NCBI GenBank assembly: GCA_031400935.1
Contig: JANNQV010000058.1
Span: forward strand, 1-64,000
Length of the DNA: 64,000 nucleotides
Reading direction: 5' to 3'
Origin: Armatimonadota bacterium
GTDB lineage: Bacteria > Armatimonadota > Fimbriimonadia > Fimbriimonadales > Fimbriimonadaceae
The translations under genes were made by a program, and so were the position numbers. The notes under the pieces are model-generated. The model was not told where the DNA came from, made no database searches, and saw only the letters and a program-made list of their open reading frames with translations. Positions 5,832 through 13,806 of this stretch are shown piece by piece. Within the stretch, counting starts at the first letter, position 1, and every line of letters starts with the position of its first letter.

Positions 5832-5997
5832 GGTTCAATTGTAGCTCAGGCTAAAAAGATTATGCACAGCTACATTTCGGTTTTCTAGACATTGGAGACG
5901 TGCGGTTGAAGATTGAAAACGGCAAAGAATCCACAACCAACAACCGATAGCAGATTCCCCAAACAATTTCCTCACAATCCTTGGTTACAATTTCAAT

Positions 5998-6906
5998 ATG
6001 TTAACTAGCGCACTTGCATTGATCGCCTTTTTAGGCACGCCTGGAATTCAGTGGTACACCGAAATGGCCCAAGGCTTTGAGGTCGCCAAAGAAACCGGAC
6101 GCCCGATCCTTTTGCTATCGGCTGCGCCGCAATGCTCCGAAGTTCCAGGGGATTGGTGACCAGGGAAACAGGATATTGATAAGAGTGTCTTATCAAATGA
6201 ACAAATCATCAAATCGAGCAGAAACTTTGTCTGCATCCGCCCCCTCACGTACGAAAACAAAGAAGAGTCTGATTACCTCCGTCTCATGCTTTCACCAAGA
6301 GGCGGGCTCGAAAACACAGTTTTTACGATTATGGATTCGAATCGTTCGAAGTACTTGGCACAGCCGAGCCGGATGCCTTATCAAACCTTTCCCGGATGCG
6401 AAAACGACCCCGAAATCATGGCTCGCGGGATGGACCAGCTTGTAGCACCTTTCGCAAAATTGCCTTTTCCAGACCAGCTTCCGATTGTTAAAGGGCTACG
6501 ATATGCTCTAAATGTAGGGGCGTGTGATCGTCGTCCAGTCGTAATCATTACTGGAACTCCCGAAGAACGTAAAAAAATCAAGGAGAGTCTTGCTCCGCTT
6601 TCTTGGTCACCAGAATTTGCTGGCCAGTTTGTGTTCACCGAATCTGATCCCGTTGAAGGGCAAAAGGCGATCACTATCGTTCAGCCCGACGAATATGGCG
6701 TGAGGTCAACATTACTCGCGGTATCAGCGACCACAAACGACCTGAGCGTCGTACTTACCCAGGGGCTCGCCAAGTTCAAACCTTGGACCAACGACCATCG
6801 CCAGCATCTGGCTCGAGGCGTTCGCAACGGAATCCGTTGGCGCCCTGCCGTGCCTGTTGAGGATAAGCAAGCTAATTCGGCAACGAAACGGCTTTGGGGA
6901 GGCTAA
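5998..6906 (+). CDS. Exported thioredoxin-like protein with in-frame UGA (candidate selenoprotein)
   Basis: ATG 5998 reads MLTSALALIAFLGTPGIQWYTEMAQGFEVAKETGRPILLLSAAPQCSEVPGDW-UGA(6157)-PGKQDIDKSVLSNEQIIKSSRNFVCIR and continues in frame into ORF 6286-6906. Confidence 0.8.
6176..6196 (+). promoter_or_regulatory. Candidate bacterial SECIS hairpin
   Basis: TTGATAAGA-GTG-TCTTATCAA: perfect 9-bp stem; the G-starting loop lies ~26 nt after the UGA. Confidence 0.65.
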
Positions 6907-6915
6907 AAATAGTGA

Positions 6916-7371
6916 ATGCAAAAGATATTTTCTCTTGGGGCAGTTCTCTTTTGTTGCTACGGCTGTAACAAACCAGCTATAGATGTTGTTGGCATATACC
7001 GCATGGAGCCTCTCGAAACCACGCCAAGGGGGAAGACTGATCCAGGTTGGGATGGGATGGCCCTCGGAATAATGGGCCAAACTTCACTTGAAATTAAAGC
7101 TGACGGCTCATTTAGATATGAAATTCATATTGAAATGTATCCCAAGGAAACTCCGACTTCAACTGTCGGCACTTGGAAACAATCGGGCTCATACCTGACT
7201 CTAACTCCTGATCAGAAATCAGAAGGCATACTTAGCTTAGAGCCCCTTGAACTGAAAGTAACCAAAGTCGGTCGTGAGTTGCTACCCACTGTCGAAACAA
7301 GACCAGGCAGGGGTTTTCGATACTATCGTAGCGATACTGAACCTACGCGCTTAACTTCTGGAGAAAAGTAG
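6916..7371 (+). CDS. Putative lipoprotein (lipocalin/NlpE-like beta protein)
   Basis: Lipobox-like CCYGC; motifs LEIKADGSF and GTWKQSG. Confidence 0.65.
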   Translation: MQKIFSLGAVLFCCYGCNKPAIDVVGIYRMEPLETTPRGKTDPGWDGMALGIMGQTSLEIKADGSFRYEIHIEMYPKETPTSTVGTWKQSGSYLTLTPDQKSEGILSLEPLELKVTKVGRELLPTVETRPGRGFRYYRSDTEPTRLTSGEK

Positions 7372-7376
7372 TTTGG

Positions 7377-7777
7377 GATCAGCGGCCAGTTGTAACGTTT
7401 CCAGGAACTGAAAACGAGCGTAACAATCTAAAGGACTCACTTGCAAAGCCATCTTGCTCAGAGTCATTTGCTGACCAATTTGTGTTCACCGAATCTGATT
7501 CTGTCGAAGGCAAGCCCGCAGTGCAAATCGTCCAGGCTGATGAATGCGGCGTGAAATCAACTGTTCTAGCGTCCATGCGACTCAAGAGTCAACAGCGTCG
7601 AATAGCGACGCCCTTTGCACCCTCCTCAGTAATGCCCTTTCAAAGTTCAAAACATGGACAATAGACCATCGCAAGCATTTGTCGCTAGGAGTGAGAAACG
7701 GAATTCGATGGTGCCTTGCCGTATCCGCTAAAGACAAGCAAGCCGATATGGCGACGAAACGGCTTAGGGGAGGGTAG
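7377..7777 (+). pseudogene. Degenerate, frameshifted copy of the 3' part of the 5998-6906 gene
   Basis: Aligns by eye to 6526-6906 (QFVFTESD.VEG, DE.GV.ST.LA, KFK.WT.DHR.HL..GVRNGIRW, DKQA..ATKRL.GG); no start codon, frameshift near 7570. Confidence 0.85.
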
Positions 7778-11995: not shown

Positions 11996-12054
11996 GCCCA
12001 GAAAAATACTAGGGTTTTAGATTCAAATTCGTGGAAAAAATACGGTGGCGACCC

Positions 12055-13806
12055 ATGGAGGGATTGCCAGCGGATTTATTTTCTATGCTTACCGGCGATG
12101 TATTTGTGGCTGAAGGTCTGATTAGTTCAGATCAATTGCAGGTAGCCGAAGAGAAGAGAAAAGAACTTGGCGGAGCAGACCCGATTGCGCGCGTTCTTGT
12201 CGAGATGGGCTTCATTGACGAGCGTGACCGCGTCCGTTGCCTTGGAAAAGTTTGGGGAGTGGGTTGCCGGGACCTGCGAGAATTCGAGCCATCCGCCGAA
12301 ATCCTTGCCCTAATTTCACCACAAATTGCGAAGCGGTTCAAGGCTATACCACTTGAGCTAGTTGATGAAAAACTCGTAGTTGCGATGGCCAATCCACTCG
12401 ATATTTTCATCATTGATGAACTTCGACTTATTACTGCCAAAGAGATTGAGCCTGTAATAGCTGTAGAAGAAGACTTGTATCAAGCCCTATCCAATTTTTA
12501 TAAGATTGAAGCCAATGTTACTGACGCCCTTGCTGGCGTAATGAAAGATTTCGATGGAGATGACATCGAAATCGGCATCGGCGATTTCGATGAAATGAGC
12601 GAAGCTGAACTTCGGGAACTGAGCGAAGATGCGCCGATTATTCGACTCGCAAATCTTATCATCACGCAAGGAATCAACGACAAGGCTTCTGATATTCATA
12701 TTGAGCCACAAAAGAACGGAATGTGCGTTCGCTATCGAATTGACGGTGTGATGATGGACGGAATGAAGCTGCCAAGAAAAATAATGGCGGCGCTTACATC
12801 TCGCTTCAAGATCATGTCCGATATGGATATTGCCGAAAAGCGAATGCCGCAAGATAACCGAATTTCTGCAACTATCGGTGGAAAGGATTTCGATTTTCGT
12901 GTTTCATCGTTGCCCGTAGTTTATGGCGAAAAAATCGTTTTGCGAATTCTGGATAAGGGCGGAATCAACGTAGGTTTGCATAAGCTTGGGTTCTTGCCGC
13001 ACAACTTGGCACTGCTTGAAGACGCATGTGCGAGAAGCTACGGAATCATCCTTGTTACCGGTCCTACTGGATCAGGAAAATCAACGACGCTCTATTCAGT
13101 TTTGAACCAAGTCAATGATGGCAGTTCAAACATTATTACAATTGAGGATCCCGTTGAATACGAGCTCTCTGGAATCAACCAATGCGGTGTGAACAACCGC
13201 GCTGGCATGACATTTTCAGCTGGGCTTCGGGCAATGCTTCGTCAAGACCCAGACATCATCATGATCGGCGAAATGCGGGATACAGAAACGGCAACGATTG
13301 CGATGGAAGCCGCATTAACAGGGCACCTTGTACTCTCAACTTTGCACACAAATGATGCGGCTTCAGCACCAACTCGGCTTATTGACATGGAAGTTGAGCC
13401 GTTCTTGATTTCATCGTCCATCATTGGAATACTGGCTCAAAGGCTTGTGCGAACCATTTGCCCAAAATGTAAGGAACCATATTCTGCCAGTCGCGAAAGT
13501 CTGTTGCGATATGGATTTCCTGTGAGCGATGAAATTGGAGCCGAGACGAATGGCGAGATCACGTTGTTTAAGGGAAAAGGCTGCGACCATTGTAAAGGCA
13601 CTGGTTACAAGGGTCGAACTGGTGTTCACGAAATGTTGGCGATGAACGATGCCATTCGCGATAAGATTCTCGAAAAGTCGCCGTCACACATTATTCGAAA
13701 TCTCGCCGTCGAAAATGGCATGAAAACTCTTCAAGTGGATGCAGTTCAGAAAATCCTTATGGGAACAACTTCAGTTGATGAAGTTCTTCGCGTTATATAT
13801 GCATAA
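12055..13806 (+). CDS. pilB: Type IV pilus assembly ATPase PilB/GspE
   Basis: N-terminal MshEN-like region, ASDIHIEP, GPTGSGKSTTLY, TIEDPVE, LRQDPD, tetra-Cys zinc motif; start could be 12031. Confidence 0.93.
   Translation: MEGLPADLFSMLTGDVFVAEGLISSDQLQVAEEKRKELGGADPIARVLVEMGFIDERDRVRCLGKVWGVGCRDLREFEPSAEILALISPQIAKRFKAIPLELVDEKLVVAMANPLDIFIIDELRLITAKEIEPVIAVEEDLYQALSNFYKIEANVTDALAGVMKDFDGDDIEIGIGDFDEMSEAELRELSEDAPIIRLANLIITQGINDKASDIHIEPQKNGMCVRYRIDGVMMDGMKLPRKIMAALTSRFKIMSDMDIAEKRMPQDNRISATIGGKDFDFRVSSLPVVYGEKIVLRILDKGGINVGLHKLGFLPHNLALLEDACARSYGIILVTGPTGSGKSTTLYSVLNQVNDGSSNIITIEDPVEYELSGINQCGVNNRAGMTFSAGLRAMLRQDPDIIMIGEMRDTETATIAMEAALTGHLVLSTLHTNDAASAPTRLIDMEVEPFLISSSIIGILAQRLVRTICPKCKEPYSASRESLLRYGFPVSDEIGAETNGEITLFKGKGCDHCKGTGYKGRTGVHEMLAMNDAIRDKILEKSPSHIIRNLAVENGMKTLQVDAVQKILMGTTSVDEVLRVIYA

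Follow-up and report, generated by a model that had tools for sequence, protein, structure and literature searches.

The 64,000-nucleotide stretch analysed here (the window; positions 1 to 64,000 of contig JANNQV010000058.1 of an Armatimonadota bacterium of the Fimbriimonadaceae) holds, at 5998-6906 on the + strand, a single open frame of 302 codons with one internal stop, a TGA at 6157-6159, and a closing TAA at 6904-6906. We interpret this frame as one functional gene for a 302-residue selenoprotein, a redox enzyme in which the TGA is decoded as selenocysteine (Sec54), and we assign this interpretation, decoding included, a probability of about 0.85. As predicted from the sequence, the internal TGA almost certainly encodes selenocysteine. 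The extent of the complete coding sequence is supported by full-length conservation in 17 related loci and by an AlphaFold2 model. The original prediction, made from the letters of the window alone, had described a frame opened by the ATG at 5998, with a TACAAT box 6 nt upstream, that runs through a lone in-frame TGA into a 206-residue open reading frame (ORF) to give about 302 codons in total; all of these elements are present. It had also foreseen that standard gene callers would split the gene, and the translation table 11 ORF list does cut the frame in two, 5998-6159 (53 aa) and 6286-6906 (206 aa). The case for a genuine, mis-split selenoprotein gene is supported, and with it both the observation and the interpretation of that prediction.

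The conservation of the TGA was determined in 17 related loci for which DNA was available: three genome contigs titled as Armatimonadota or Fimbriimonadaceae metagenome-assembled genomes (MAGs), three metagenome contigs, and 11 loci from 10 genomes found among 401 searched genomes of the phylum Armatimonadota. The protein identity of these loci to the window protein ranged from 82% down to 25%. When each locus was read in frame, the TGA stood at the same alignment column in 17/17 relatives, or 18/18 with the window. The codon lies in the window in the context TGG TGA CCA GGG AAA (W-U-P-G-K), and the 18 loci share the motif C-x7-W-U-[P/N]-G around it; the C-x7-U spacing, which the original prediction had singled out as an unusual arrangement, is invariant (18/18). 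Among the 18 sequences, W19, A30, P44, C46, G51, and W53 are invariant upstream of the TGA, and G56, L65, R81, Y85, E86, N106, R125, P162, D177, and P180 are invariant downstream of it. The 42 codons between the TGA and the ATG at 6286 are strongly conserved as protein and include five of these residues (G56, L65, R81, Y85, and E86). Since the TGA occupies the same column in all loci, with invariant residues on both sides, neither a nonsense mutation nor a sequencing error can explain it, and its presence in 18 independent assemblies in itself rules out a sequencing error.

The protein records are consistent with this. The 12 relatives returned by the initial protein search (173-258 aa) all begin past the TGA position, which is what gene calling would yield if a conserved TGA were taken for a stop, and the short database proteins that match the N-terminal part terminate exactly at ...PGxW in 8/8 cases. 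In three full-length homologues, known from their protein records (P0015, P0019, and P0157), the Sec column holds Cys, with 'GMWCPGK' twice and 'GLWCRGY' once, and one of the three represents a 15-member cluster. We take these Cys residues to be genuine because ordinary gene callers produced the proteins. Homologues had been proposed as a check, with Trp or Arg at this position as the sign of a simple nonsense mutation; the full-length variants have Cys, not Trp or Arg, and the coding-like conservation extends to both sides of the TGA. One database representative, P0022, begins M-T-G-K-Q, and its Met occupies the Sec column; either a one-base difference may have led to a start call on the GTG overlapping TGG-TGA, or the protein may be a non-Sec variant.

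These data bear directly on the alternative that the TGA is a true stop, which would leave a 53-residue peptide and a separate 206-residue ORF from the ATG at 6286, or else a pseudogene with a nonsense mutation. A true stop agrees with table 11 calling, and the same split call was made for 147 of the 150 best database representatives. However, retention of the TGA in every locus down to 25% identity is unlike the behaviour of a nonsense mutation, the 42 codons that follow it are conserved as protein, and three homologues have Cys in its place. A stop at this position would moreover break a single thioredoxin fold apart after strand 1, ahead of helix 1. We find a true stop hardly credible.

A hairpin with a perfect 9-bp stem and a GTG loop at 6176-6196 had been put forward as a candidate bacterial selenocysteine insertion sequence (SECIS). 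The hairpin is present on the + strand as TTGATAAGA-GTG-TCTTATCAA, and the G of its 3-nt GUG loop comes early, as in bacterial SECIS elements. The stem begins 19 nt after the U of the UGA (stem +19 to +39), 17 nt behind the TGA. Perfect 9-bp hairpins with loops of 3-8 nt are rare in the 64-kb window (15 matches at about 8 sites, versus 1.8 ± 1.4 in block shuffles), so that finding one 17 nt behind the only in-frame TGA is unlikely by chance. In the ungapped alignment of the 18 sequences, the stem lies in the same columns throughout, and 90.1% of the 162 pair cells form standard pairs. The corresponding value was 78.7 ± 1.3% with shuffled partners (0/500 shuffles reached 90.1%) and 36-52% when the 3' arm was slid by 1-3 columns. 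Five of the nine pairs are changed on both sides, in 18 cells. Compensatory changes are found at codon positions not dictated by the protein: an Asp codon, GAU or GAC, covaries with the third base of a Leu codon, and a Lys/Arg codon, AAG or AGG, covaries with synonymous UUR/CUG Leu codons in the stem. The most distant member, L026, has a different peptide (LESRVLS) in the hairpin region and still keeps the hairpin in register. Most of the 18 loops start with GU, with L026 and L027 noted as exceptions, and in the same genome GUU loops occur in the hairpins found behind the TGA in selD and in a Trx-like gene. Conservation in register in 18/18 sequences, together with covariation, argues for the proposed role of this hairpin as a bacterial SECIS.

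The source genome (2.97 Mb in 67 contigs, 95.6% complete) was next examined for the machinery of selenocysteine decoding. It encodes SelA (385 bits), a SelB winged-helix domain in a 615-aa frame, SelD, and a tRNA-SeC with anticodon TCA, so the host has the complete set on which the original prediction depended. The selD gene itself carries an in-frame TGA (C15, 155.7-156.6 kb, - strand) with a hairpin after it. At least two further Trx7-like genes of this genome have a TGA at a UxxC motif, and in each a hairpin follows: one encodes a DsbD-like fusion ('GYT-U-TNC'; C45, about 91.4-91.6 kb, + strand) and the other a Trx-like protein ('ADW-U-GAC'; C25, about 65.9-66.0 kb, + strand). A Trx7-like Cys paralogue, 'DWCRYC', is found on C50. 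TGA closes 236 of the 795 open frames of at least 400 codons, which indicates that the genetic code is standard and that TGA is an ordinary stop. SelA was detected in 218/401 genomes of the phylum sample and in 11/11 genomes holding the selenoprotein family; as related genomes are not independent, we make no statistical claim from this co-occurrence.

It may be asked whether the UGA is instead read through by a standard tRNA, whether a near-cognate Trp or Cys tRNA or one of a reassigned code, and not as selenocysteine. A C follows the TGA in 17/18 loci, and UGA followed by C is a weak termination context, which would suit such read-through. Against this, TGA is a normal stop in the genome, simple read-through gives no role to a hairpin that is conserved and covaries at SECIS distance, every family-holding genome of the sample is SelA-positive, and Cys is the sole sense alternative seen in the Sec column. 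Read-through by a standard tRNA is thus very improbable.

An AlphaFold2 model of the protein was built on the 18-sequence alignment. The model was confident (predicted local distance difference test, pLDDT, 90.3; predicted template modelling score, pTM, 0.89), with only residues 1-11 below pLDDT 50, and it comprises two domains, both of which are thioredoxin folds. The N-terminal fold (residues ~17-156; 6046-6465, + strand), which would hold the redox site, is of the DsbD-gamma / DsbH / AGR type according to VIA-align, Foldseek, and a sub-cut-off Pfam match. By VIA-align, model residues 12-156 matched 3f9u_B with Z 12.0 (rmsd 3.0, 125 aligned), DsbH 2ju5 with Z 10.8, and 1vrs_D with Z 10.4; Foldseek returned AGR2 and DsbD-gamma. 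The C-terminal fold (residues ~158-260; 6469-6777, + strand) is 'b-type' and has no CxxC. By VIA-align, model residues ~158-263 matched thioredoxins with Z 8.6-9.8, the best being 6i19 (Z 9.8, rmsd 2.4, 92 aligned). When the whole model was submitted to Foldseek, the matches, which also speak for this second fold, included the b'-a' pair of protein disulfide isomerase (PDI; E 1e-5), an EDEM:PDI complex, ERp44, and calsequestrin. The proposal that the frame encodes a thioredoxin-like protein is borne out by these two folds, the first with Z of 10-12 to DsbD-gamma-like domains.

In the model, helix 1 (residues 55-62) starts directly after residue 54, which places Sec54 at its N-terminus, and the TGA lies between strand 1 and helix 1 of a single thioredoxin fold. 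Three Trx7-like paralogues from the same genome, of which two are UxxC selenoproteins, were aligned with the protein; U54 falls on the first Cys or Sec of their CxxC/UxxC. Sec54 therefore sits at the catalytic Cys position where the original prediction placed it, but it does not form part of a classical dithiol site. In the paralogue alignment, Lys57 (codon at 6166-6168, + strand; Lys in at least 90% of the 18 sequences) stands where CxxC has its second, resolving Cys. The position of the cis-proline of classical thioredoxin folds is taken by Asn106 (codon at 6313-6315, + strand; invariant in 18/18), which aligns with the Pro of L-P-[ST] and Y-P-A in the paralogues. With Lys at the +3 Cys and Asn at the cis-Pro, the protein falls outside the classical CxxC dithiol oxidoreductases. 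The proposed partner of Sec54 is Cys46 (TGC at 6133-6135, + strand), which is invariant in 18/18 sequences and lies in an 8-residue insertion absent from the three paralogues. The predicted model has the tandem thioredoxin arrangement of PDI, with two consecutive folds of which one is catalytic and one is not; this is a likeness of architecture, not homology.

On this basis, we propose that the UGA at codon 54 is read as selenocysteine, with the hairpin 19 nt downstream acting as a bacterial SECIS that would recruit SelB with Sec-tRNA(Sec) to the ribosome. Sec54 would be the nucleophile, in the attacking position of the CxxC motif, and Cys46 would resolve it to an intramolecular selenenylsulfide. 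The protein would be a monoselenol redox enzyme of the cell envelope, whose redox-inactive second thioredoxin fold may bind the substrate, a task that falls to the b domains in PDI. We thus infer a redox enzyme, probably exported, that works through a Sec54-Cys46 selenenylsulfide. The candidate substrates are protein disulfides or thiols, by monothiol chemistry like that of ERp44 and AGR2, or a peroxide, by chemistry like that of glutathione peroxidase.

The second of these candidates corresponds to a glutathione-peroxidase-like selenol peroxidase, in which a hydroperoxide would oxidise Sec54 to selenenic acid, Asn106 and Trp53 would assist in its activation, and Cys46 would resolve it. Glutathione peroxidases use Sec with Gln, Trp, and Asn, and in the present protein an invariant Asn and Trp flank Sec while the CxxC resolving Cys and the cis-Pro are both lost. 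In 2/17 loci (L010 and L011), a glutathione peroxidase gene is situated divergently upstream. However, neither Pfam GSHPx (PF00255) nor AhpC matched at E<=1, which places the protein outside the GSHPx sequence family, and no glutathione peroxidase appeared among the 50 VIA-align rows or the Foldseek matches listed, a result that falls short of exclusion. A second thioredoxin fold is, in addition, typical of disulfide isomerases and not of peroxidases. A peroxidase is on balance unlikely, though it deserves serious consideration. The Sec/Cys pair might also bind a soft metal or metalloid (Hg, As, Cu, or Se itself) in place of redox cycling, since C-x7-U is not a classical redox spacing and many predicted Sec sites map to metal-binding positions according to a 2026 review (PMC13188914). 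Yet no metal-transport or metal-resistance genes lie near the gene in any of the 17 loci, and the fold and the position of Sec match thiol oxidoreductases; metal binding is accordingly improbable.

Several observations weigh against our preferred reading of the gene as an exported redox selenoprotein decoded with the aid of a SECIS. The folding energy of 6150-6230 (81 nt) is unremarkable (z = -0.43; 59/200 shuffles fold equally well), so that the SECIS case is founded on conservation and not on folding energy. Kinship among the sequences inflates the shuffle control of stem pairing, for which the slid-partner control is the fairer comparison. No Rfam family matched the hairpin; at E<=10, the sole match within window positions 5900-7000 was to RT-17, on the opposite strand and attributable to chance. 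As to export, the N-terminus of the window protein has no basic residue before its hydrophobic stretch, and a subgroup of relatives (L017 and L019-L022) has no hydrophobic N-terminus in the frames read, which suggests that export is perhaps not universal. Finally, the gene neighbourhood is not conserved beyond close relatives, whether the window is compared with 15 loci or the loci with each other (46 neighbouring ORFs scanned with Pfam), and the functional assignment is therefore drawn from the protein itself.

Export by a signal peptide is plausible. The short hydrophobic N-terminus (5998-6045, + strand; MLTSALALIAFLGTPG) is a probable signal peptide, an assignment in keeping with the low pLDDT of residues 1-11 and with the clearer signal-like N-termini of L025, L026, P0015, and P0198. 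A twin-arginine-like 'QRRGFITLA' is present in L018: this homologue, in G106 (L018 1261-1340), begins MQRRGFITLALGG. If its signal is of the twin-arginine translocation (Tat) type, the selenoprotein would be exported by Tat in folded form in that lineage.

Upstream of the gene, the TACAAT at 5986-5991 (+ strand) ends 6 nt before the ATG, with no Shine-Dalgarno sequence. A scan for consensus two-hexamer promoters found no + strand promoter at this site, and we count TACAAT only as a -10-like hexamer. Among the five relatives compared, four have an A/T-rich -10-like hexamer at the same spacing. In the window and L010, L011, L012, and L013, the hexamers TACAAT, TAAAAT, CAAGAT, CAAAAT, and GATAAT lie 6-7 nt before an ATG, again with no Shine-Dalgarno sequence, and the four closest sequences have CCTCACA in common about 20 nt upstream. 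The mRNA of the selenoprotein gene may be leaderless.

The surroundings of the gene were also inspected. A 151-aa ORF at 6916-7371 (+ strand) separates the gene from a decayed second copy; the ORF has a hydrophobic N-terminus with a Cys-rich stretch, LFCCYGC, matched no Pfam family, and possibly encodes a lipoprotein. The decayed copy (7344-7777, + strand), outside the functional gene, covers the C-terminal third only and is frameshifted, matching residues 169-302 in two frames. It has 66% nucleotide identity over 407 nt, conserved residues have been lost (RLWGG to RLRGG, PVED to SAKD), and it is probably the remnant of a tandem duplication. A few kb downstream, at window positions 12031-13806 (+ strand), lies a gene for a type II/IV secretion ATPase (T2SSE with an MshEN domain), and such a gene is also found beside the L018 homologue (L018 2803-3747); the adjacency is possibly a coincidence. 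A sulfatase gene stands directly downstream of the selenoprotein gene in L010 (3898-5229) and L027 (1-1257), the two sulfatases being 31% identical to each other. As this adjacency is too rare (2/17 loci), we did not take it as a functional link, and the gene neighbourhood as a guide to function was rejected, with a sulfatase downstream and a glutathione peroxidase upstream in only 2/17 loci each.

To assess the size of the family, a profile built from the 18 sequences was used to search 1.84 billion cluster representatives. It matched 1148 proteins at E<=1e-3, of which 735 reached E<=1e-10 and 313 reached E<=1e-30. Among these 1148, the best 150 were examined for start position: 147 do not start before profile position 62, which puts their first residue at the Sec column or directly behind it, and most open with 'MDRSFLS'. 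Standard callers appear to split this gene as a rule. The remaining three span the N-terminal domain, and in all of them the Sec column holds Cys. Where members are named, they are recorded as 'hypothetical protein', from Planctomycetes/Planctomycetota and from Fimbriimonadaceae MAGs. With the 206-aa table 11 ORF as query, the ESM Atlas returned clusters labelled 'hypothetical protein', about 242 aa in length and with 138-311 members, for which Planctomycetota and Verrucomicrobiota were the commonest sources. Within its own family-level group the gene is patchy, as no full-length match was found in 36 other genomes of that group.

Curated resources were then searched for a name. The Pfam scan gave only Thioredoxin_7 (PF13899; residues 18-81, E 0.0016), at 19 bits against a cut-off of 27. 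The NCBIfam scan gave four weak matches, every one of them to a selenoprotein model and with a score far short of its cut-off: trx7_PDZ_seleno (21.1 bits against 300), VPGUxxT type 1 (21.4 against 350), VPGUxxT type 2 (15.5 against 275), and TsoB (12.5 against 805). A profile search of solved-structure sequences yielded nothing meaningful (best E 0.011, focal adhesion kinase), and with residues 14-100 as query, no homologue was matched among proteins of near length. Among the 119 prokaryotic selenoprotein families in Table 1 of the 2026 review, none has the C-x7-U motif or this architecture (PMC13188914); the Pfam and NCBIfam accessions in that table were covered by our scans, with none at cut-off, while its cd, COG, and PTHR accessions fell outside the test. 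No description of the family was found in the literature on selenoproteins of Armatimonadota, Fimbriimonas, and Planctomycetes or on Thioredoxin_7 and selenoprotein families. A candidate from a 2008 GOS study, hypothetical protein GOS_A, was not equated with the family, since in that study (PMC2398784, Table 4) it has 2 Sec and 155 Cys members, the opposite ratio. On the evidence here, the gene appears to belong to a large family that is unnamed in curated resources, a thioredoxin-fold bacterial selenoprotein that involves no new principle.

The near-absence of Cys forms may be why the family has gone uncatalogued. Nearly all selenoproteins have far commoner Cys homologues, and discovery methods lean on Sec/Cys pairs, according to the review (PMC13188914); strategies that depend on such pairs are described there and in the 2008 GOS paper (PMC2398784). 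A family with few Cys forms would be missed by these searches. The present family, with 147 of the 150 best representatives Sec-like and three Cys, runs contrary to the trend and falls in the blind spot of these methods. Hundreds of 'hypothetical protein' entries, about 240-260 residues long, seem to cover only the 3' four-fifths of a selenoprotein, with the catalytic residue and the signal peptide cut off, and one model with a Sec exception would repair their annotation. We tentatively suggest, as a broader claim that we hold to be somewhat less probable than its contrary, that the gene is the founding example of a large uncatalogued family of Armatimonadota, Planctomycetota, and Verrucomicrobiota in which Sec is the rule and Cys is rare. 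Its layout would be new, with Sec at the CxxC position, Lys for the second Cys, Asn for the cis-Pro, and the resolving Cys on an inserted loop, and in combination with the second fold it would amount to an exported monoselenol enzyme of bacteria that resembles PDI. Loss of the resolving Cys and of the cis-Pro from a thioredoxin fold in which Sec, Asn, and a distal Cys are nevertheless invariant offers a testable new active-site arrangement.

Of the known systems, the VPGUxxT family (NCBIfam NF041382 / NF041383, 'hypothetical protein OS_HP5') resembles the window protein in its Thioredoxin_7-like N-terminal region, in V-P-G just before Sec, and in having no +3 Cys. The length of type 2 is comparable (287 profile positions versus 302 residues), and the models give weak but specific matches over residues 17-91. 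Profile and motif comparison nevertheless places the window protein outside this family: the scores of the two models lie far below their cut-offs, as given above, and its motif is VPGDWUPGK (VPG-x-W-U-P-G-K, with two extra residues and a Lys), in place of VPG-U-x-x-T. The NF041383 model found nothing at E<=1e-10 in 301 genomes of the phylum (0/301), a sample that included holders of the window's family. The N-domain of the Trx7/PDZ selenoprotein (NF041199) is also of the Thioredoxin_7 type and matches over residues 17-82 (profile positions 1-60). Its score, too, is well short of the cut-off, the window protein has no PDZ match in Pfam, and the motif given for NF041199 in Table 1 of the review (PMC13188914) is CxxU, not C-x7-U.

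The best structural matches of the N-domain are the Thioredoxin_7-type CxxC domains of DsbD gamma, DsbH, and 'exported cytochrome c biogenesis-related' proteins, on whose first Cys Sec54 falls; the same genome has a DsbD-like UxxC selenoprotein (C45). Compared with the DsbD gamma-type domains, the window protein has Lys for the second Cys, Asn for the cis-Pro, the 8-residue insertion with Cys46, and an extra thioredoxin fold. Its likeness to PF13899 is strong at the level of the fold, although the Pfam score stays below the threshold for membership. Beyond bacteria, the window protein resembles PDI-family members with one active Cys, namely ERp44 (CRFS) and AGR2/AGR3 (CxxS), and the a-b pairs of PDI. 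Tandem thioredoxin folds are among its Foldseek matches, which include the PDI b'-a' pair as 3wt1 (E 1e-5), ERp44 as 5xwm, and AGR2 as 9i3f (TM 0.64 on target), and it has a single nucleophile and no +3 Cys. These eukaryotic proteins differ in that their identity is 8-16%, with no detectable sequence relationship, in that their domain orientation gives an rmsd of 15-21 Å over the whole model, and in that the window protein is bacterial and has Sec, not Cys. ERp44 and AGR2 act through mixed disulfides with their clients. The likeness of the window protein to this group is one of analogy, not of membership.

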